From NCBI GenBank assembly GCA_963783375.1, contig CAWANH010000028.1, positions 1,120,001 to 1,184,000 of the forward strand: DNA of 64,000 bases, given 5' to 3'. The position numbers and the translations under genes were made by a program. Below, one piece after another: positions 1 to 26,594 of the stretch (within the stretch, counting starts at the first letter, position 1; each line of letters begins with the position of its first letter). This DNA comes from Candidatus Eiseniibacteriota bacterium (GTDB taxonomy: Bacteria > Eisenbacteria > RBG-16-71-46 > JABDJR01). The notes below the pieces were generated by a model. That model did not search any database. It was not told the origin of the DNA and saw only the letters and a program-made list of their open reading frames with translations.

Positions 1-1392
1 GATCTGGCCCGGGACGGGAAGGGCCGGCCCATTCCCCTCTACAAACCGCTTCGCCACGACGAGTGCAGCGCCTGCCACCGCGATCCCCACGAGAACCGGC
101 TCGGGCCCGCCTGCGGCAAATGCCACGTCACCGAGGGGTTCAAGAAAACGGCCGCGGGGGGGTTCGATCACGGGGTCACCCGGTACCCCCTGGCCGGCCG
201 CCACGTCGGGCTGGAGTGCGCGAAGTGCCACGATCCGGTGAAGGCGTGGGGCAAGCGCCCGGCCTTTGCCCGCTGCGACGATTGCCACCGGGATCCCCAC
301 GCCGGTGAGACCCGCCTGGCCGGAAAACCCGCGGATTGCGCGGCCTGCCACGCCGTCTCGGGGTTCCGCCCCTCGACCTACACCGTGGACCGCCATCGCG
401 AAGCGGCCTACCCCCTGGAGGGAAAGCATCGCGGCGTGGAGTGTCGCGGGTGCCATCTCCTCAAGCCGGCGAAGGTGCCGGCGGAGAAGCTGGGAGCGGC
501 GGGGATCCTCATGCGCCCCCGCTTCGCCACCTGCCGCGACTGCCACGCCGAAGCGCACGACGGCCAGCTCACCGGCCGCGCCGACGGCGGCGCCTGCCGG
601 ACCTGCCACGCTCCCTCGGGCTGGAAACCGAGCCTCTTCACCGTATCGGACCACGCGACGCTCAAACTTGCGTTGGAAGGCAGGCACGAGGAGATCGCCT
701 GCGCCGCGTGCCACGGCCCCCGCCGCCGCGATCTTCCGGTTCTTCCCGGCCCCGACACCACCGGGACCGCCGGCGTGATGTTGGCGTTGGGGAGCGGCGC
801 GTGCGTGACCTGCCACGTCGACCCCCATTTCGGCCGCTATGATCGCCCCGCCGAGGCCTCGCCGCCGGGCGGTTGCCGCGCCTGCCATGCCGCCTCGACG
901 TTCCGCCCCGCGACCGTCGGCGTGGAAACCCACCGGGAGTATTCCTTCCCCCTGGAAGGGGCGCATCGCGCGGTGCCGTGCACCGGTTGCCACCGGGAAC
1001 TCATGCGGCCGCCCCTGTCCTCGACCTTGGTCGGCGCGGGGGTGAAGCTCGTCCCCCTCCGGTTCAACCAGCACCGAAGCGCCTGCCGGGATTGCCACGA
1101 CGGGCCCCACGGGACGCAGTTCGCGGTTAGGGCGGACAAGGGGGCCTGCGGGACTTGCCACGGGGTCGACGCCTTCGCTCCCGCGGACCACTTCGACCAT
1201 GACCGGGACACGGCGTTCGGCCTCCGAGGCGCCCACGCGAAGGTGGCCTGCGCCGAATGCCATCCCTCACGGAAAGACGCGGACGGAGTGGAGCGGATCC
1301 GCTACCGCCCTACTCCCACCGAGTGCGAGAGCTGTCACCGGGGCGGTCGGCCCGGGACGGGGTCCCGCCGGAACGGGGGGGGCGGATCATGA
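1..1392 (+). CDS. Multiheme c-type cytochrome, 5'-truncated by window edge (16 CxxCH visible)
   Basis: Frame is open from base 1 (DLARDGKG..CSACH..CGKCH..CAKCH) into ORF 238..1392, which has 13 more CxxCH; recurring H..(Y/F)PL.G.H...CxxCH modules; stop TGA overlaps next ATG (ATGA). Confidence 0.95.
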   Translation, partial: DLARDGKGRPIPLYKPLRHDECSACHRDPHENRLGPACGKCHVTEGFKKTAAGGFDHGVTRYPLAGRHVGLECAKCHDPVKAWGKRPAFARCDDCHRDPHAGETRLAGKPADCAACHAVSGFRPSTYTVDRHREAAYPLEGKHRGVECRGCHLLKPAKVPAEKLGAAGILMRPRFATCRDCHAEAHDGQLTGRADGGACRTCHAPSGWKPSLFTVSDHATLKLALEGRHEEIACAACHGPRRRDLPVLPGPDTTGTAGVMLALGSGACVTCHVDPHFGRYDRPAEASPPGGCRACHAASTFRPATVGVETHREYSFPLEGAHRAVPCTGCHRELMRPPLSSTLVGAGVKLVPLRFNQHRSACRDCHDGPHGTQFAVRADKGACGTCHGVDAFAPADHFDHDRDTAFGLRGAHAKVACAECHPSRKDADGVERIRYRPTPTECESCHRGGRPGTGSRRNGGGGS

Positions 1393-4300
1393 GAGGGTGG
1401 AACGGGTTCCTGGCTCGTCTGTGGTCCCGGCGTCCTGGTTGGCGGCTCATCCGCCCGGGGTTTGTGCTGGTCGGCGTGTTCATCGTCTTCGGGGGAGGGA
1501 TGATCTGGGATGCGGTCGGAGCGGGGGCGGACGATGACGAGCCCAAGTACCCGCACGGGTCGTTCCAGGCGGAGTGCAGCATGTGCCACTCCTCGGAGGG
1601 ATGGAAACCGGCACAGATCGGCAAGCAGTTCAAACACGAGAAATACGGGATGCCTCTCGACGGGGCGCACGCCGAGACGCCGTGCCTGTCCTGTCACCGG
1701 TCCCTGGAATTCGCGGACAGCGGCACGCAGTGCGCCGAGTGCCACCAGGACGTGCACAACAGCGAGTTGGGAACGGAGTGCGCGGATTGCCACACCACCC
1801 GGAGCTTCGGGGATCGATCCCGGATGGAGGACCTCCATCAGCTCACCCGGCTGCCCCTGACCGGCGCGCATGCCACGCTGGACTGCGCGGATTGCCACGT
1901 GTCGCAGGCGAAAGGGAAGGGGACCTTCGCCGGGGTGGCGGCGGAATGCGCGTCGTGCCACCTGGCCCGCTACGAGGCCGTGGAGGATCCTCCCCATGAG
2001 GCAGACCACTTCTCAACGGAATGCTCCCTCTGCCACGGCACGTCGAGCTGGAACGGCGGCGCCTTCGAGGCGGCCGGCCTGACGGAGTTCGATCACGGGG
2101 CGACGCTGTTTCCCCTGACCGGGGCGCACACCCGAACGGAGTGCATGACGTGCCATGGGGGTGGGGTATACCGGGGGTTGAGCACGGAGTGCGCAACCTG
2201 CCACCAGTCCGACTACGACGGGACCACGGACCCGGATCATCAGGCCGCCGGGTATCCCTTGGAGTGTGCGAATTGTCACGGCACTGAGAGCTGGTCGGGA
2301 GCGGACTTCAATCACGATGAGACCGGGTTCCCGCTCACCGGGGCTCATGTGGTCCAGCAGTGCCAGAGCTGTCACGGGGGTGGGGTGTACCAGGGGCTGG
2401 GCACGAAGTGCGCGACCTGCCACCAGACCGACTACAATGGGACGACCGAACCGGTGCATAGCGCGGCCGGGTTCCCGGTCACCTGCCAGGACTGCCACAA
2501 CACGACCAACTGGGACGGCGCGACGTTCGACCACAGCACCCAGACCCAGTTCCCCCTCACCGGCGCGCACGTCGCCCAGCAGTGCCAGAGCTGCCACGGG
2601 GGTGGGGTGTACCAGGGGCTGGGCACGGAGTGCGCAACGTGCCACCAGGCGGACTACGATGGGACGACCGAGCCGGTTCACAGCGCGGCCGGGTTCCCGG
2701 TGACCTGCCAGGACTGCCACAACACGACGAACTGGGACGGGGCGACGTTCGATCACGACAGCCAGACCCAGTTCCCGTTGACCGGGGCGCACATCACCCA
2801 GCAGTGCCAGAGCTGTCACGGGGGTGGGGTGTACCAGGGGCTGGGCACGGAGTGCGCAACGTGCCACCAGGCGGACTACGATGGGACGACCGAGCCGGTG
2901 CACAGCGCGGCCGGGTTCCCGGTGACGTGCCAGAACTGCCACAACACGACCAGCTGGGACGGGGCGGTTTTCGATCACGATAGCCAGACCCAGTTCCCGC
3001 TCACCGGCGCGCACGTCGCCCAGCAGTGCCAGAGCTGCCACGGGGGTGGGGTGTACCAGGGGCTGGGCACGGAGTGCGCAACCTGCCACCAGGCGGACTA
3101 CGATGGGACGACCGAGCCGGTTCACAGCGCGGCCGGGTTCCCGGTGACCTGCCAGGACTGCCACAACACGACGAACTGGGACGGGGCGACGTTCGATCAC
3201 GACAGCCAGACCCAGTTCCCGTTGACCGGGGCGCACATCACCCAGCAGTGCCAGAGCTGTCACGGGGGTGGGGTGTACCAGGGGCTGGGCACGGAGTGCG
3301 CAACCTGCCACCAGGCGGACTACGATGGGACGACCGAGCCGGTGCACAGCGCGGCCGGGTTCCCGGTGACGTGCCAGAACTGCCACAACACGACCAGCTG
3401 GGACGGGGCGACGTTCGATCACGACAGCCAGACCCAGTTCCCGTTCACCGGGGCGCACATCGCCCAGCAGTGCCAGAGCTGCCACGGGGGTGGGGTGTAC
3501 CAGGGGCTGGGCACGGAGTGCGCAACCTGCCACCAGGCGGACTACGATGGGACGACCGAGCCGGTTCACAGCGCGGCCGGGTTCCCGGTGACCTGCCAGG
3601 ACTGCCACAACACGACGAACTGGGACGGGGCGACGTTCGATCACGACAGCCAGACCCAGTTCCCCCTCACCGGGGCGCATATCGCGGCTCAATGCCAGAG
3701 CTGCCACGGCGGCGGGGTGTACCAGGGGCTGGGCACGGAGTGCGCGACCTGCCACCAGGCCGACTACGACGGGACCACGGATCCACCTCACGACCCGGCC
3801 GGGTTCCCGGTGACCTGCCAGGACTGCCACAACACGACGAACTGGGACGGGGCGACGTTCGATCACGACAGCCAGACCCAGTTCCCGTTGACCGGGGCGC
3901 ACATCACCCAGCAGTGCCAGAGCTGTCACGGGGGTGGGGTGTACCAGGGGCTGGGCACGGAGTGCGCAACGTGCCACCAGGCGGACTACGATGGGACGAC
4001 CGAGCCGGTGCACAGCGCGGCCGGGTTCCCGGTGACGTGCCAGAACTGCCACAACACGACCAGCTGGGACGGGGCGGTTTTCGATCACGATAGCCAGACC
4101 CAGTTCCCGCTCACCGGCGCGCACGTCGCCCAGCAGTGCCAGAGCTGCCACGGGGGTGGGGTGTACCAGGGGCTGGGCACGGAGTGCGCAACCTGCCACC
4201 AGGCGGACTACGATGGGACGACCGAGCCGGTTCACAGCGCGGCCGGGTTCCCGGTGACCTGCCAGGACTGCCACAACACGACGAACTGGGACGGGGCGAC

Positions 4301-7193
4301 GTTCGATCACGACAGCCAGACCCAGTTCCCCCTCACCGGGGCGCATATCGCGGCTCAATGCCAGAGCTGCCACGGCGGCGGGGTGTACCAGGGGCTGGGC
4401 ACGGAGTGCGCAACCTGCCACCAGACCGACTACGACGGGACGACCGACCCGCCCCACGATCCGGCCGGGTTCCCGGTGACCTGCCAGGACTGCCACAACA
4501 CGACGAACTGGGACGGGGCGACGTTCGACCACGACACCCAGACCCAGTTCCCCCTCACCGGGGCGCACGTCGCCCAGCAGTGCCAGAGCTGCCACGGGGG
4601 TGGGGTGTACCAGGGGCTGGGCACGGAGTGCGCGACCTGCCACCAGTCCGACTACGACGGGACGACCGAGCCGGTTCACAGCGCGGCCGGGTTCCCGGTG
4701 ACCTGCCAGGACTGCCACAACACCACGACCTGGGACGGGGCGACGTTCGACCACAGCACCCAGACCCAGTTCCCCCTCACCGGCGCGCATGTCGCCCAGC
4801 AGTGCCAGAGCTGCCACGGGGGTGGGGTGTACCAGGGGCTGGGCACGGAGTGCGCAACCTGCCACCAGACCGACTACGACGGGACGACCGAACCGGTGCA
4901 CAGCGCGGCCGGGTTCCCGGTGACCTGCCAGGACTGTCACAACACCTCGGCCTGGGACGGCGCGACGTTCGACCACGATACCCAGACCCAGTTCCCGTTG
5001 ACCGGGGCGCACATCACCCAGCAGTGCCAGAGCTGTCACGGGGGTGGGGTGTACCAGGGGCTGAGCACCGAGTGCGCGACCTGCCACCAGACCGACTACG
5101 ACGGGACCACGGACCCGCCCCACGACCCGGCCGGGTTCCCGGTGACCTGCCAGGACTGCCACAACACGACGAACTGGGACGGGGCGACGTTCGACCACAG
5201 CACCCAGACCCAGTTCCCCCTCACCGGGGCGCACATCACCCAGCAGTGCCAGAGCTGCCACGGGGGTGGGGTGTACCAGGGGCTGGGCACCGAGTGCGCG
5301 ACCTGCCACCAGTCCGACTACGACGGGACCACGGACCCGCCTCACGACCCGGCCGGGTTCCCGGTGACCTGCCAGACTGCCACAACACGACGAACTGGGA
5401 CGGGGCGGACTTCGATCACGATACCCAGACCCAGTTCCCGTTGACCGGGGCGCACATCACCCAGCAGTGCCAGAGCTGCCACGGCGGCGGGGTGTACCAG
5501 GGGCTGGGCACGGAGTGCGCGACCTGCCACCAGACCGACTACGACGGGACGACCGACCCGGCCCACGATCCGGCTGGGTTCCCGGTGACCTGCCAGTCGT
5601 GCCACAACACGACGAACTGGGACGGGGCGACGTTCGACCACAGCACCCAGACCCAGTTCCCCCTCACCGGCGCGCACGTCGCCCAGCAGTGCCAGAGCTG
5701 CCACGGGGGTGGGGTGTACCAGGGGCTGGGCACGGAGTGCGCGACCTGCCACCAGTCCGACTACGACGGGACGACCGAGCCGGTTCACAGCGCGGCCGGG
5801 TTCCCGGTGACCTGTCAGGACTGCCACAACACGACGACCTGGGACGGGGCGGTTTTCGATCACGACAGCCAGACCCAGTTCCCGCTGACCGGGGCGCACA
5901 TCACCCAGCAGTGCCAGAGCTGCCACGGCGGCGGGGTGTACCAGGGGCTGGGCACGGAGTGCGCGACCTGCCACCAGGCCGACTACGACGGGACCACGGA
6001 CCCGGCCCACGACCCGGCCGGGTTCCCGGTGACCTGCCAGGACTGCCACAACACGACGAACTGGGACGGCGCGACGTTCGACCACAGCACCCAGACCCAG
6101 TTCCCGCTCACCGGGGCGCATCATCGCGGTCCAATGCCTGAGCTGCCACGGCGGCGGGGTGTACCAGGGGCTGGGCACCGAGTGCGCAACCTGCCACCAG
6201 ACCGACTACGACGGGACCACCGACCCGGTGCACAGCGCGGCCGGGTTCCCGGTGACCTGCCAGGACTGCCACAACACGACGACCTGGGACGGCGCGACGT
6301 TCGACCACAGCACCCAGACCCAGTTCCCGCTCACCGGGGCGCATCTCGCGGTCCAATGTCTGAGTTGCCACGGCGGCGGGGTGTACCAGGGGCTGGGCAC
6401 CGAGTGCGCAACCTGCCACCAGGCCGACTACGACGGGACGACCGAACCGGTCCACAGCGCGGCCGGGTTCCCGGTGACCTGCCAGAACTGCCACAACACC
6501 ACGACCTGGGACGGCGCGACGTTCGACCACAGCACCCAGACCCAGTTCCCGCTCACCGGGGCGCATCTCGCGGTCCAATGTCTGAGCTGCCACGGCGGCG
6601 GGGTGTACCAGGGGCTGGGCACCGAGTGCGCGACCTGCCACCAGACCGACTACAATGGGACGACCGAACCGGTGCATAGCGCGGCCGGGTTCCCGGTGAC
6701 CTGCCAGAACTGTCACAACACCTCGGCCTGGGACGGCGCGACGTTCGACCACAGCACCCAGACCCAGTTCCCCCTCACCGGCGCGCACGTCGCCCAGCAG
6801 TGCCAGAGTTGCCACGGGGGTGGGGTGTACCAGGGGCTGGGCACGGAGTGCGCGACCTGCCACCAGTCCGACTACGACGGGACGACCGAGCCGGTTCACA
6901 GCGCGGCCGGGTTCCCGGTCACCTGCCAGAACTGTCACAACACGACGACCTGGGACGGGGCCACCTTCGACCATGACGCATCGTTCTTCCCGATCTACTC
7001 GGGGAGTCATAGTGGACGATGGAGCGATTGCACCGACTGTCACACCAACAACACGAATTACACCGATTTCACCTGCCTGAGCTGCCATCCGCACGATGAC
7101 AAATCCAAGACCGATGGGGACCATCGGGGCAGATCCGGATACCAATACGACAGCCAGGCTTGTTATTCATGCCATCCCCGGGGGAGCCACTAA
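1389..7193 (+). CDS. Giant tandem-repeat multiheme cytochrome c (~1934 aa, ~76 CxxCH); -1 indel at ~5375 and +1 indel at ~6122 as assembled
   Basis: ATG 1389 overlaps upstream stop; N-terminal hydrophobic segment (FVLVGVFIVFGGG); 7 N-terminal CxxCH + 22 repeats x 3 + 3 C-terminal. Pieces lie in ORFs 1257..5444, 4136..6679 and 6159..7193. Span is 5805 nt = 1935 codons, so the frame is restored net. Confidence 0.9.
2088..6974 (+). repeat. Intragenic tandem array of 22 units, ~222 bp (74 aa) each
   Basis: Consensus FDH(S/D)(T/S)QTQFPLTGAHxxQQCQSCHGGGVYQGLGTECATCHQxDYDGTT(EPVHSA/DPPHDP)AGFPVTCQ(D/N)CHNTTxWDGAT; the GGGVY codons recur at 2376, 2598, 2820 ... 6816, plus a diverged first unit at ~2157. 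Confidence 0.97.
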
Positions 7194-8821
7194 TGACTCG
7201 GTGGGCGAGCGCGGCGCTTACCGTGATCGCGACCGTGCTGGCCTGCCTGGGGGCGCCGTCCCCCGCCCCGGCTGCCGTCGACAACACCTCCATGGCCGAT
7301 AGCAGTGCCCACGTCACCTACGTCACCGGCGACTTGATCTATGTGGACGCGGGACGGCAGAGCGGCCTGGGGGAGGGTCTGGAGCTACAGGTCGAGCGGG
7401 ATGGGAAGGCGGTGGCCACGCTCAAGGTGGAGCACCTCTCCTCCCATCAGGCCTCGTGCTCCGTGATCGGAGATCCGGTCGAGGTGAAGATCGGGGATGT
7501 CGTCCGGTTCCGACCGGTTCCTGCCAAGACGACCGGCGAGAATCCGTCGCCGGCGGCGAGCCGGGCAAATCCCGGCCGGACCGGCTCGGTATCGACGATG
7601 CAGGCGCTCCGGGCCCTGGGTTTCCGGGGACGGGTCGGGGTCCGGTACCTCACCCTGATGGATCAGACCGGGTCCGGCGCCGGCTTCTCCCAGCCCGCGC
7701 TGGACCTCCGGGTGTCCGGGACCCGGATCAACGGGAGCGACCTGGACCTCTTGGTCGATGCCCGGGCGCGCCGTACCTACCGGACGGACGCGAACGGGGG
7801 GCAATCCAACGACGGACGGACCCGCTTCTATCGGCTGAGCCTCTCCCGCCGGGCCGAGGGCTCACCCCTGCGGCTGTCCCTGGGTCGGCAGGTATCCCCC
7901 GACCTGGCCTCGGTGAGCCTCTTCGACGGCCTCCTGGGGGAATACGCAAGACGATCCGTGGCCTTCGGGGTCTTCACCGGTACCCAACCCGATCCCAAGA
8001 CCTACGGCGCCTCGAGCGAAGTGTTCGAATATGGGGGCTATGCCCGGGTGCAGGGCGCGCAGGCCGGAGTGGGCCGTTGGGCGCTCACCGGAGGAGCCAT
8101 CCAATCGCTGGTGAGGGGAGCGGTGAACCGGGACTATCTCTTCCTACGCGGCCGGTACATGAACCGCCGGATGTTCGGGTACCTGACCCAGGAGATCGAC
8201 ATCAATCGCGGCTGGAAGGCGAAGGCCGGCGAACCCCTGCTGACCCCGACCAGCACCTACCTGAACCTCCGCTATCAGCCGGCACCGGCATTGAGTTTCA
8301 CCGCCGGCTTCGACAACCGCCGGAACGTCCGGCTCTATCGGGACCGCGATACGCCGGAGACGGTGTTCGACGACAGCTATCGCCGAGGGCTCCGGGGCGG
8401 GGTGAGCGTGCGCTTTCTGGACCGGTTCCGGGTTGGGGGAGACGCCGGGATCCGCGGCGGGGGCGGGAGCGGCGATTCGAAATCCTTCACCTTCACCACC
8501 CGCATCTCCCGGCTGTCTCCGCTGGCCGTCGATCTGAGCACCCGGCACACGCGCTACACCGGCCCACTCGCCGACGGCTGGCTGCACACGGTTCGGGCGG
8601 GCGGTTCGATCGGCAGGCGGAACCGACTGGAACTGCACGCGGGGGGGAAGCGGGAAGACCGGTTCACCGGACCCGAGACCTCGGCGCAGACGACGTGGCT
8701 CGGTGCCGACCTGGACCTCGGCATCGTGACCGGCTGGTACCTCCTTCTCTCGGGAGAGTCCACCCGGGGAGACGTCGAAAAGAACGACCAGGTCTACACC
8801 AGCTTGTCCTACCGGTTCTGA
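7193..8821 (+). CDS. Outer-membrane beta-barrel protein with N-terminal FlgT_C-like small beta domain; putative porin partner of the cytochromes
   Basis: ATG 7193 overlaps cytochrome TAA (TAATG); signal peptide; IYVDAG..GL..G..L.V.R...VA.L.V domain; amphipathic strands; ends SLSYRF (terminal Phe BAM signal). Confidence 0.8.
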   Translation: MTRWASAALTVIATVLACLGAPSPAPAAVDNTSMADSSAHVTYVTGDLIYVDAGRQSGLGEGLELQVERDGKAVATLKVEHLSSHQASCSVIGDPVEVKIGDVVRFRPVPAKTTGENPSPAASRANPGRTGSVSTMQALRALGFRGRVGVRYLTLMDQTGSGAGFSQPALDLRVSGTRINGSDLDLLVDARARRTYRTDANGGQSNDGRTRFYRLSLSRRAEGSPLRLSLGRQVSPDLASVSLFDGLLGEYARRSVAFGVFTGTQPDPKTYGASSEVFEYGGYARVQGAQAGVGRWALTGGAIQSLVRGAVNRDYLFLRGRYMNRRMFGYLTQEIDINRGWKAKAGEPLLTPTSTYLNLRYQPAPALSFTAGFDNRRNVRLYRDRDTPETVFDDSYRRGLRGGVSVRFLDRFRVGGDAGIRGGGGSGDSKSFTFTTRISRLSPLAVDLSTRHTRYTGPLADGWLHTVRAGGSIGRRNRLELHAGGKREDRFTGPETSAQTTWLGADLDLGIVTGWYLLLSGESTRGDVEKNDQVYTSLSYRF

Positions 8822-8845: not shown

Positions 8846-9337
8846 TCAGCGCACCTCGATGAGGACGGTTTCCCCGTCCACGCGCACCGGGTAGGGATGA
8901 ATGGGCCCGCCGGCGGGGCCGTCGAGCACCCTCCCCTCGTAATCGAAGAGGGACTTTCCCACGCTGCAGCACTGGAGGACCGGACCGTTCACGCAAGGGT
9001 CCAGCTTTCGCCCCCCGTGCGCGCAGCGGTTCTCGAATGCGTGATACCCGCCGTCGATCCCGTGGATGAGGAGCACCGGCGCCGGGAGCATCGGGCCCTC
9101 GATCCGGACCGCCCCGGCCCTCCGGTTCAGCTCCGAAATCCGGGTCACGTCCACCCGGATCGTGCCGTCGGCGAAGGCCCAGGAATCGGCATCGGCCGGG
9201 GGCTCGGTGGCGGGGATGCCGAAGATGCGCTGGAAGAGGTTTCTCCGGACGCAACTGATGGCGACGGGAGAGGGCGGATCGGCATTCGGCCCCTTGTCCG
9301 TCGCGCGTCGCTCAGCGATCAGGGGTTCCTTCATCAT
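8846..9337 (-). CDS. Rieske-fold [2Fe-2S] protein with atypical second box
   Basis: GGAGG before ATG 9337; AFENRCAHGG..L / LQCCSVGKSLFD..G.VL.GPA..PI..YPV matches Rieske layout, but box 2 lacks His. Confidence 0.75.
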   Translation of the reverse strand: MMKEPLIAERRATDKGPNADPPSPVAISCVRRNLFQRIFGIPATEPPADADSWAFADGTIRVDVTRISELNRRAGAVRIEGPMLPAPVLLIHGIDGGYHAFENRCAHGGRKLDPCVNGPVLQCCSVGKSLFDYEGRVLDGPAGGPIHPYPVRVDGETVLIEVR

Positions 9338-9572
9338 CGTCCCATCCTCCGTGCCATGGGGGTTTCGGGGGTGGCGGACCATGACCGTCAACCGCGGGAC
9401 GCCGGTGATCCGGGCGTGAACCCGCGCGTCGAAGGTACTCCACCACCGACGCCGGCGCAAAACGAATTCGATAACAAAGTTGTTTTGCGATCGTGTTTGT
9501 CCGATGAGCTGATCCAGGATCACCGACCGCGCCGCCGCCGAACAACCGGTCCCCGGGGAAACCGCGCGGCGA

Positions 9573-11129
9573 TCAGGAGGTGGGAAACACAACCCGACAG
9601 AGGCGGCTTCCCGACGCCCTCCGGATCAGGGTGAGGGCGGCGCCATCCTCCTCCAGACGGCGAATCAGCCATCGGGGCCGGGTCTCGTAGGTCCAGAAGC
9701 TCCGGTGGGCAAGGATGAAGGGCCGGTAGTCGGGGACGTCCAGGTCGACCACTTCCCCGACGATGCTGAGATTTCGCTCCGCAGTGTCGTCACCGGTGTA
9801 CTGAAGCGCCGCCTCGGGATCGTTGAGGTAGACCAAGCGATCGGCGATCGCCCGGGGCAGGTAGTGGCGGGCCTGGATGAACGCGTGCGGGTCGCCGACG
9901 GCGACCGGCGTTGGAGTCTCGGGGAGTGTGAGCAGAAGCGGATGCATGGCCAGCACGGCCGCCCGGGGGTCCTTGGGCGCCGCGACCGCCCTTCCCGCAT
10001 CCTTCAGCACCGCGAGGGAGATCATGAGGAGCAAGAGGACCGCCGTGGTCGTGCCTCCGCGCGAGAGCCGGCGGACCGCGATGGTGAAGAACACCGACAG
10101 TCCGATGATTGCCGGGATCCCGTACCGGAAGGTGTAGGTGCCGGTTTCGGCCATGGCGGTGAGTACCGCCGCCGCCGGGATGAGGACGAATCCACCGAGC
10201 GCGGCCAGCTCATGCGGGTTAAACCCGCCGCGCTTCGTTCGGGAGGGGATCGGCGGGTCGGAGCGGGTGAGCCGCAGGACGCCCACCACGATCGTCACCG
10301 CGACGAGGGTGACCAGGGCGGGACGGAGGAGCATTCCGTAGGTGCCGAGGATCTGCTCGGGGTGCGGGGGGGCCCAGGAGTGGGCGAAGAGCCGGGTCCG
10401 AACCGCCCGGATCACCGGAAGGAGCGGGATGAACGCGGCGAAGGGAAGAACCAGGGCCGCCGCGATCGCGCCGTCGAGCCGGCGCCGCTCCATCGTCCGC
10501 GCGAGTTCGCCCGACCCCAGGGCCACGATCGCGAAGACCGCGTAGTAGTGATTGGCTATGCCCAGAAAGAGGCCCAGGAAGAGCCCGGCCAGGCCGAGGC
10601 GCCGATGCCTGCCGGTGGCCGCTTCCTGCCAGGACAGGAGGGCGAGCCCGGCCAGGCCGAGCAGGATGCCATAGGGACGGGCCTCGTAGGCGTAGGGGTA
10701 GGCGCCGGTCTTGAGCAGGAAGAGAACCGTGATGAACCCGTAGATCGTTCCCAGGCGGCGGCGCGTGAAGGCGAAGAGGGCGAGCAGAAACGTGCCGAAG
10801 CCGAGCCATGCCGGGACCCGGACCGCGACCTCGCCGTCGCCGAGGGTCGCGTGAACGGCGTGGAGCAGGAACGCATGGAGCGGGGGGGCTCCGTCGACCC
10901 CGGCCAGAGACGCGCGCCACACCGCGGAGATGGAGGGGAGGCCGGCCACATAGAGAGCAATGATCTCGTCGTTCCAGAAGGGCTTCGCCGCCGCCCGAAG
11001 GACGGTGGTCAGCGTGTAGAGGAGGAGAAGCGCCGCCACCAGGGCCCCGGCGTGCCGCTCGACGAAGTCCGCCACCCGGTCCGCGGCGCGATTCAGGGTT
11101 CCGGTCCGACCGGGCGGGATTGCGTGCAT
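9573..11129 (-). CDS. GT-C (family 39 / ArnT-PMT-like) membrane glycosyltransferase
   Basis: W.DE motif after TM1, PPL, R.P, YAYEARPY, HYYA; many TM segments. Confidence 0.8.
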   Translation of the reverse strand: MHAIPPGRTGTLNRAADRVADFVERHAGALVAALLLLYTLTTVLRAAAKPFWNDEIIALYVAGLPSISAVWRASLAGVDGAPPLHAFLLHAVHATLGDGEVAVRVPAWLGFGTFLLALFAFTRRRLGTIYGFITVLFLLKTGAYPYAYEARPYGILLGLAGLALLSWQEAATGRHRRLGLAGLFLGLFLGIANHYYAVFAIVALGSGELARTMERRRLDGAIAAALVLPFAAFIPLLPVIRAVRTRLFAHSWAPPHPEQILGTYGMLLRPALVTLVAVTIVVGVLRLTRSDPPIPSRTKRGGFNPHELAALGGFVLIPAAAVLTAMAETGTYTFRYGIPAIIGLSVFFTIAVRRLSRGGTTTAVLLLLMISLAVLKDAGRAVAAPKDPRAAVLAMHPLLLTLPETPTPVAVGDPHAFIQARHYLPRAIADRLVYLNDPEAALQYTGDDTAERNLSIVGEVVDLDVPDYRPFILAHRSFWTYETRPRWLIRRLEEDGAALTLIRRASGSRLCRVVFPTS

Positions 11130-25448: not shown

Positions 25449-26594
25449 ATGGCCCGCCGCTCCCGCCTTGTCCTCTCCGTGTTCGCCTTGTCGCTCGTCT
25501 TCTGCGCCGCATCCGCCCTTGCCGATGACGGGCCGGGCGCGTTCTCCACCTCTTCCATTCACTCCGGGGGGCGCATGCGCTCCACCCACGGGGTTTTCTC
25601 CATCGCCGGCGGCGCCTATCCCGACGCCGAGCCCCGCTATCACAACGGGAGCGAGCTGGTGTGTGGGGACTGCCACGTCATGCACGCTTCCCAGACCCAT
25701 CCCTACGATCCGGCGGGCGCGAGGCCGGGGGAGGAGGTCCCCTACGCCGGAGGGCCCAACCCGAAGCTCCTGAAGGTCCCCGACCCTCTCGATCTCTGTC
25801 TCAACTGCCACGACGGCCGCACCTTCGCCCCCGACGTTCTCGGGGCGGACGTGAACGGCCTCGTCCAGCGCTCGGCGGGACACTTCGACGAGCCGGAGCT
25901 GGCCAACCCCCGCGGACACGACCTGGGCCGGGGCCTCCCCGACGCCGAGGGATTCGGCCTCTGCACGCGGTGCCACTTCTCGAGCGGCGAGGACGCCAAG
26001 GTCACCTGCATCGACTGCCACAACCCGCACGGGAACGGGGTGGCCCGGAACCTCCAGTGGGCGAGCGATCCCACGTCCACCCCGGACCTGGGGCTCTTCG
26101 TGAACCCGGGGGCGAGCGGGCTGGCCCGCTACGAGGCTTCGAACGTTTCCTTCGGGACCCTGAACACCGACCAGCTCCGCGAGGTCACCAACATCTGCCT
26201 CGACTGCCACCACATCTTCTCGGGGGAATCCTACATCGACCCCGACGGCAACGGGTTCCACAACCGCCATCCCACCTACGACAGCGAGCGCGGGTCGATC
26301 AACTCCATCAGCCAGGGGGACGCCGACGGGCGGACCAATTCCCCCCACTGGCTGGGAGGGACCGGGTCGGGGTTCATGGGGACGCCGCGGCTCCGCTTCG
26401 TGGCCTCCGGGGCCACCGACTTCGCCTCCGGGACGGTCGTGGACGCGGACAACGACGGGGTGTTCTGTTTGAGCTGCCACACCGCCCATGGAAGCGATCA
26501 GGCCTTCGCCCTGACCTGGACGCTCCAGGACGGATACGGCGCCCCCGGCTGCGACCAGTGTCACTACGTGGCCCAGGTGGACGCGGCCCCCTAG
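25449..26594 (+). CDS. Secreted 7-heme cytochrome c, OmcS-like motif architecture
   Basis: AGGAGG RBS; signal peptide ending ALA; CGDCH, CLNCH, CTRCH, CIDCH, CLDCH, CLSCH, CDQCH; YHNGSELVCGDCHVMHAS, CxxCHNPHG, RHP, VFCLSCHTAHGS. Confidence 0.9.
   Translation: MARRSRLVLSVFALSLVFCAASALADDGPGAFSTSSIHSGGRMRSTHGVFSIAGGAYPDAEPRYHNGSELVCGDCHVMHASQTHPYDPAGARPGEEVPYAGGPNPKLLKVPDPLDLCLNCHDGRTFAPDVLGADVNGLVQRSAGHFDEPELANPRGHDLGRGLPDAEGFGLCTRCHFSSGEDAKVTCIDCHNPHGNGVARNLQWASDPTSTPDLGLFVNPGASGLARYEASNVSFGTLNTDQLREVTNICLDCHHIFSGESYIDPDGNGFHNRHPTYDSERGSINSISQGDADGRTNSPHWLGGTGSGFMGTPRLRFVASGATDFASGTVVDADNDGVFCLSCHTAHGSDQAFALTWTLQDGYGAPGCDQCHYVAQVDAAP

Follow-up and report, generated by a model that had tools for sequence, protein, structure and literature searches.

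Among described systems, the porin-cytochrome cluster termed PCC3 is the closest to the locus treated here. According to He 2017 (PMC5566968), it combines an inner membrane protein of ~300 amino acids and five helices, with SGXXG on helix 4 and WX3HX13H on helices 3 and 5, proposed to be a quinone-active cytochrome b, with repeat-containing cytochromes of median 21 and 34 hemes and a maximum of 85, for which the idea of a wire was raised. The extracellular cytochrome is rich in Thr, Ser, Ala and Gly, its location being a prediction; PCC3 occurs in Fe(II) oxidizers, and its porin in L. cholodnii has 22 strands (PMC5566968). Edwards 2020 (PMC7096707) scaled 27 hemes to 200 Å and an 86-heme protein to 630 Å and suggested exit through the porin, and Hoover 2023 (PMC10734462) used AlphaFold2 to model PCC3 cytochromes of 10-35 hemes as long and mostly linear, naming a capacitor as an option. 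Heme numbers vary among homologs (PMC7399161). Here we describe a giant cytochrome gene at 1389..7193 (+) of a 64,000-nucleotide stretch of a Candidatus Eiseniibacteriota genome, which we call the window (G000:C28:1120001-1184000, G000 being the source genome; coordinates are window positions unless a contig is named). Its 1934 codons hold 76 CxxCH heme-binding motifs, and larger cytochromes are on record (Garber 2024, PMC11475568; a peat preprint, 10.64898/2026.05.27.727921, with up to 116 motifs).

Judged by its sequence, the giant is a long and unusually homogeneous, not record-sized, member of a large family with a putative function. We lean, with confidence a little above even, towards reading it as the long, outermost wire in a trans-envelope electron conduit of five proteins, likely NAD(P)H-linked. 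If this is true, many bacteria of soil, sediment and sludge that are not regarded as electroactive would possess an unbroken route from cytoplasmic NAD(P)H to the exterior, and the 74-amino-acid module would be ready for use in building heme wires of any desired length. The first-pass annotation of this DNA had put forward a repeat-built wire; such wires had already been proposed (PMC5566968, PMC7096707).

The giant cytochrome and its repeat array

From the ATG at 1389 to the TAA at 7193 the 1934 codons (1389-7190) are split by a -1 break near 5373 and a +1 break near 6122, with a net indel of zero. A six-frame count gives 75 intact CxxCH and one severed by the -1 break at ~5373; 66 of them lie in the frame of the ATG, 51 before the first break and 15 after the second, and nine in the intervening frame. 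The first-pass annotation had counted 76 motifs in ~1934 residues after correcting two indels, about one heme per 25 residues, in 22 repeat units flanked by seven head and three cap motifs, and each of these figures is borne out, the measured density being 25.4 amino acids per heme. Tandem Repeats Finder reports the array at period 222, 21.8 copies, 2151-6977, 90% matches and score 7109; the runner-up array in the window scores 86.

The chain opens with a predicted Sec signal peptide (1389..1529, +), recognized from sequence and hydropathy by its basic n-region, a hydrophobic stretch at residues 25-43 and an AGA cleavage-like site; the leader sequence has no lipobox Cys, and orthologs carry a leader of similar kind, as judged by eye, ahead of the HG head motif. 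A conserved head follows (1530..2087, +), with PHG and heme 1 and then two diverged modules, seven CxxCH in all; its motif is present in 58/80 loci. The tandem array (2088..6965, +) comprises 22 units of 219-223 nucleotides with the order H(FDH)-H(GAH)-CxxCH-CxxCH-H(PxH)-CxxCH, and the C-terminal cap (6966..7193, +) is a conserved diverged module (PIYSGxH ... CYxCHPxG; alignments A1 and A2) with three CxxCH. Because head and cap are themselves diverged modules, the chain reads as one heme plus 25 modules of three.

Cut at the FDH motif, the units start at 2088, 2307, 2526 and so on to 6744; two have 219 nucleotides (units 1 and 2, 73 amino acids), eighteen have 222, unit 15 has 221 and unit 19 has 223. 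Units 1 and 2 are more diverged, with 60-77 and 25-41 nucleotide differences from the others. Statistics refer to the 18 units of 222 nucleotides (3-22 minus 15 and 19), whose mean identity is 90.2% in nucleotides and 90.4% in amino acids (80-100%); 16 of the 18 are distinct, the only identical pairs being 4=9 and 5=10. The earlier description of near-identical units therefore holds for the 90% average and not for the whole range. Likewise, a length of 74 residues does not hold for units 1 and 2, which have 73; the three extra His are invariant across the 18 units compared, as are the three motif His and all six Cys. In unit 7 (3414-3460) FPFTG stands in place of FPLTG, which the matching unit of a second assembly has, and may be an error.

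The chain contains 80 non-motif His, one from the broken motif, against 76 heme sites, and Met is scarce (4). With a spare His for each heme, all-bis-His ligation is possible, and this stoichiometry, together with the 25 residues per heme and the operon partners, supports the earlier suggestion of an electron-transfer chain with no catalytic heme. The chain from 1530 to 7190 is very acidic, with 207 Asp+Glu against 22 Lys+Arg, heme propionates uncounted; the Thr+Ser+Ala+Gly content of the giant is 39%.

A heme-free model of three modules and the cap (48 sequences; mean predicted local distance difference test score, pLDDT, 80; predicted template modelling score 0.56) shows the same short-helix pattern in each module, and the module fold is predicted to repeat along the chain. 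Foldseek returned no match for this model at E <= 0.001 and VIA-align none at Z >= 2 among 48,161 chains, which is no proof of a different fold; a PDB sequence search with the units gave nothing useful, and a profile gave weak generic multiheme matches only. On the scale of Edwards 2020 (PMC7096707) the giant, if linear, would span ~56 nm and its 23-heme partner ~17 nm.

The inter-unit differences are mostly silent (nonsynonymous and synonymous differences per site, pN 0.057 and pS 0.247; pN/pS 0.23), and are therefore unlike random errors or a copied unit. The units are under purifying selection, and the array of 22 tandem units at 2088-6965 is real. Both frame breaks, the -1 break in the third motif of unit 15 (5366..5380, +) and the +1 break in unit 19 (6118..6126, +), are very likely assembly errors. 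In 213 genes of the source genome shared with its relative G002, whose open reading frames were taken from 20 stretches (400 kb), there are 18 frame breaks, 0.066 per kb, mostly single-base changes in G/C runs; about 0.4 would be expected in 5.8 kb, and the two observed are somewhat high. Repeats polish badly. Both contigs of sequencing run X1 that pass over 6122-6123 do so without the extra base, each with 3-4 other mismatches to unit 19; these are short-read contigs from Logan, too short to reach across the array or, to the extent shown, the -1 break, and 5390-5419, uncovered in runs X1 and X2, carries no evidential weight. A CCWGG methylation error was considered as the cause of the -1 break and is not supported, as 0/21 indel rows listed near background breaks fall in CCWGG.

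A second assembly, of a near-identical strain, carries the gene as P0154 and P0244 on a 2.39 Mb contig. In P0244 the unit matching unit 19 is in frame, and a break with the same protein-level pattern as the window's -1 break lies in a different unit; the assembly breaks shortly before the window's -1 site, which is therefore not directly confirmed there. Between the marker units 8 and 14, P0154 has three units where the window has five, and aligning the two unit series costs 20 with two gaps against 31 ungapped, the gap placement not being fixed; a 535-bp exact repeat at 1110-bp spacing lies in the same zone of the window. The second assembly thus seems to have two units fewer, through a strain difference or an assembly error that only spanning reads would separate, and for this reason we give 70-76 hemes as a safe range. 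From the two breaks, the exact repeat, the shorter second assembly and the fact that no spanning reads were seen, one might argue that the length of the array was produced by assembly, or that the gene is a pseudogene broken twice. We think either very improbable, since the units are mostly distinct and differ mostly at silent sites, frame breaks also occur in the background genes, the second assembly breaks elsewhere, and intact open reading frames equally long or longer are common in the family.

The operon and a putative path to the exterior

The first-pass annotation treated the giant as a stand-alone protein and so missed the operon to which its gene belongs, in which genes for a membrane protein, an oxidoreductase, a 23-heme cytochrome, the giant and a barrel are coupled by overlapping stops and starts or a 9-nucleotide gap. 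The giant gene shares an ATGA overlap with its upstream neighbor and a TAATG overlap with the barrel gene.

Two of the genes lie upstream of the window. The membrane protein (C28:1117014-1117871; 285 amino acids, five helices, four His) has five hydropathy peaks; helices 3 and 5 each bear WxxxH-x13-H and helix 4 bears SGxxG (motifs at 81, 121 and 254), and the complete motif set recurs in 120/120 homologs listed, out of 479 found. The ferredoxin/flavin adenine dinucleotide (FAD) oxidoreductase (C28:1117881-1119320; 479 amino acids) begins with a helix and includes a 4Fe-4S dicluster domain as well as a flavin domain; the latter, with GGGDSA and SYR, is closest to YpdA, thioredoxin reductase and ferredoxin-NADP reductase and under every such cut-off. 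The label of YpdA bacillithiol disulfide reductase was rejected (TIGR04018, 164 against a cut-off of 339.9 bits): the fold is related, but here a ferredoxin is fused to it and the protein has a membrane anchor.

The 23-heme cytochrome (G000:C28:1119317-1121392, its 3' part being window 1..1392, +) is built of a related module and has 23 CxxCH and a signal-like N-terminal helix; most orthologs have 20 or 23. The barrel gene P0002 (7193..8821, +) encodes a signal peptide, a small N-terminal beta domain, 22 strands and a C-terminal Phe, and its product is predicted to be an outer-membrane beta-barrel; the AlphaFold2 model (pLDDT 91.5) contains the 22 strands and the small beta domain, and its top Foldseek matches are PapC/FimD ushers and Occ porins. 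The protein matched 0 Pfam and 0 NCBIfam families; an MtrB/PioB label was discarded, there being no family profile match and no MtrB chain among its matches, and ESM Atlas searches with the barrel and the membrane protein gave unnamed clusters only. The N-terminal beta domain (7277-7530) has a weak match (E 0.004) to TsaP, a component of the type IV pilus machinery.

In the conduit that we favor, cytoplasmic NAD(P)H would reduce the membrane-anchored oxidoreductase at its FAD and Fe-S clusters, and electrons would then pass to a pair of b hemes in the membrane protein and on to the periplasmic 23-heme cytochrome (~17 nm). From there they would cross the 22-strand barrel into the giant (~56 nm if linear), for which export and all-bis-His ligation are predicted and which might deliver them to minerals, humic matter or other cells.

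Several points weigh against this path. PCC3 is itself termed functionally unverified (10.1101/2025.02.27.639646), and the conduit role of the window family is putative; in strain ES-1 the PCC3 extracellular cytochrome Slit_1448 scored 0 in all eight proteome columns shown (PMC12016527). The giant has no lipobox or other anchor, and there is no known export route for a folded 76-heme chain. Short orthologs (10-16 hemes) are common, the median being 25, and great length is therefore not needed. In four class relatives (L035-L037, L039) the fetched stretches hold a barrel and cytochromes but neither the membrane protein nor the oxidoreductase. The source genome encodes heme-attachment (PF01578), secretin and, at three loci, heme-copper oxidase-family genes, and the cassette also occurs in Emticicia oligotrophica, an aerobe; the oxidase genes and this host mean that anaerobic mineral respiration is not implied. 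Finally, mosaic units can also arise from polishing of a long-read repeat.

The same proteins could be wired differently, the membrane protein exchanging electrons with the quinone pool, or the current running inward from outside donors to the reduction of NAD(P)+. FNR-type flavoproteins are bidirectional, which would suit such an arrangement, as would the cytochrome b-like fusion that, by eye, replaces the two upstream genes in L035. He 2017 (PMC5566968) likewise favors it in proposing a quinone-active cytochrome b and in placing PCC3 in Fe(II) oxidizers. We nevertheless find it unlikely: the oxidoreductase accompanies the membrane protein in 39/41 full loci, although a module linked purely to quinones could do without it, and HX13H pairs are found as well in ferric reductase/NOX domains, which are fed by NAD(P)H.

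The giant might instead be an electron store, coiled or lying sideways in the periplasm or on the surface, whose module number sets capacity and not reach. A predicted cleavable signal peptide with no anchor, a length of ~56 nm that exceeds the 20 nm periplasm, hosts that appear to include oxygen-respiring soil bacteria with fluctuating redox, and the capacitor option named in Hoover 2023 (PMC10734462) would all fit. Yet the barrel gene adjoins in 77/80 loci, the PCC3 cytochrome models are long and mostly linear (PMC10734462), and the strong negative charge disfavors tight coiling, so that a store, too, strikes us as improbable next to the outward, NAD(P)H-linked conduit.

Around the operon, a gene for a Rieske-domain protein (8846-9592, -) faces its end, and a 7-heme cytochrome with doubled-CXXCH matches is encoded at 25449-26594 (+). 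A 42-heme cytochrome of a different repeat type (G000:C29:1461681-1466169, -; paired CxxCH, H-x-P-F/V motifs) adjoins a 10-heme DmsE-like gene among more multiheme genes, a second candidate conduit in the same genome.

A family of variable length

Barrel matches occur in 22/61 genomes searched, the source genome counted. Scanning with the cap alignment, one genome being taken for each species, gave 332 confirmed stretches; the 80 best were retained, some being records of G loci. By record titles the cassette reaches about eight phyla (Eisenbacteria, Gemmatimonadota, Acidobacteriota, Zixibacteria, Bacteroidota, Calditrichota, Ignavibacteria and Latescibacteria). A barrel is present in 77 of these 80 loci, the oxidoreductase in 58 and the membrane protein in 55; in the 41 loci with 20 kb of sequence each, the counts are 41, 39 and 39.

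Head and cap share one open reading frame in 58/80 loci, with 12-61 motifs and a median of 25. The motif number of these complete orthologs is 1 mod 3 in 53/58, and the remaining five each have one CX3-4CH. The comparison of repeat number across homologs that the first-pass annotation had called for thus yields hemes following 1+3m, from 10 to at least 94. Intact single frames hold 61 motifs in G001, of the same genus, and 85 in G034. A protein search with the first 1328 residues, restricted to proteins of 730-2324 amino acids, found 3243; among the best 120, a set that favors long proteins because it is ranked by score, 30 have at least 76 motifs, and among the 65 complete ones 24 do, the largest having 94 at the length limit, with 56/65 at 1 mod 3. 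Giants do exist in other lineages, as had been noted, but within its own family this one is not exceptional in size. The near-identity of its units, singled out as the unusual part, does stand at the top of the range (module homogeneity 0.88, most others 0.35-0.75), but it is equalled in L067 (0.88) and approached in P0199 (0.85) and L052 (0.82); P0183 has 0.80.

Modules tend to resemble those of their own chain most: the nearest neighbor lies within the same protein for 19/19 window modules, 16/17 in G001 and 167/235 over 20 proteins, and several Gemmatimonadota proteins differ (0/10, 2/12). Over 42 sites, four-gamete conflicts increase with distance, from 13/74 at under 10 nucleotides to 83/248, 177/302 and 118/237 farther apart. 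Such mosaicism is in keeping with gene conversion and unequal crossing-over that followed the separation of the species, to which chimeric polishing may add, and the same two processes probably alter module number between a fixed head and cap. One may go further and picture a length-tunable, new-fold heme wire, exported via its own barrel and driven by NAD(P)H without quinones, which gains and loses 222-bp modules (~2 nm each) by recombination quickly enough for strains of one species to differ, making reach a contingency trait from 10 to >90 hemes in eight phyla; all of this holding together is a tentative proposition, to which we give rather less credence than to its negation.

Emticicia oligotrophica DSM 17448 carries the whole cassette (23 + 40 hemes) and ccsA on the ~100-kb plasmid pEMTOL02 (L123:2687-14485, NC_018749.1), the sole match in plasmid searches for the cassette, which can therefore be mobile. 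This cultured carrier with its own ccsA makes the PCC3 idea testable; it and a homogeneous module to express are the practical gains.

Variants were also seen. The class relatives L035 (2263-6484, -), L036, L037 and L039 pair a barrel with a capless repeat cytochrome, with a 17-heme partner in 3/4, and a 7-heme gene takes the place of the membrane protein and oxidoreductase; in L035 it is fused, by eye, to a cytochrome b-like part. Tandem paralogs or pieces precede one barrel in L106:5455-10322 (31+22+10), L113:25-10435 (23, 13, 54, 34) and L108:4089-10429 (49+36). In the G004 array (L031:11297-17008) the first piece contains 36 motifs and is followed by many frame breaks, and G003, of the same genus (L038), shows barrel fragments only and no cytochrome within the fetched stretch.

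Comparison with known systems

Set against the published description of PCC3, the cassette shows the membrane-protein motifs, a partner of ~21-27 hemes, a variable repeat-rich cytochrome (10-85 hemes in PCC3) and a barrel. The membrane protein, at 285 amino acids, has five hydropathy peaks and all motifs; the adjoining barrel has 22 predicted strands, where PCC3 has 22 or more; the periplasmic-type cytochrome has 23 CxxCH and a signal-like helix; and the giant, at 25.4 amino acids per heme and 39% Thr, Ser, Ala and Gly, falls within the 22-39 amino acids per heme and the composition of the larger PCC3 cytochrome. In every PCC3 feature that can be read from sequence the cassette resembles the published description, and it would presumably work in the same way. 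Three things go beyond PCC3: a near-constant cytoplasmic flavoprotein, a module without a solved-structure match, and a length that seemingly differs between close strains. PCC3 was described from Proteobacteria and the window cassette was found in about eight other phyla; the main text of He 2017 (PMC5566968) does not tie a ferredoxin/FAD oxidoreductase to PCC3, and the strict 1+3m heme count of the giant and its orthologs, with a head and cap that stay fixed, is unlike PCC3 as described.

In the literature searched, with subscription journals and most supplements outside its scope, no paper on this five-gene cassette, its module or its flavoprotein was found. Two Bacteroidota clusters from conductive-particle or anode enrichments may belong near it. 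A Lentimicrobium metagenome-assembled genome, found only with conductive carbon, has a 'giant PCC-cluster' of a porin with 61- and 20-heme cytochromes (PMC13013709), counts that also occur in the window family, to which it may belong; the Bacteroidetes_1 cluster (PMC8258643), a porin cluster with large uncharacterised cytochromes, may be of the window family too. The passages concerned describe neither the module nor the flavoprotein. The peat EET1-4 clusters (10.64898/2026.05.27.727921), with cytochromes of 8-13 hemes, were compared and look different.

A single chain of covalent three-heme repeats, proposed as a wire, is known from the c7-type triheme polymers of Geobacter (GSU1996, GSU2210), and the order of His and CxxCH in the window unit differs from the c7 order. 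The c7 label was rejected, as unit 3 scores 20.3 against 24.8 bits for PF14522 and no TIGR04257 stretch passes alone; the whole giant passes PF14522/TIGR04257 only by summing repeats. With MtrCAB the cassette shares the combination of a barrel with a periplasmic and an outer cytochrome, and with OmcS a long heme chain, the difference being that OmcS-type length comes from subunit polymerisation and that of the giant from repeats within one gene.

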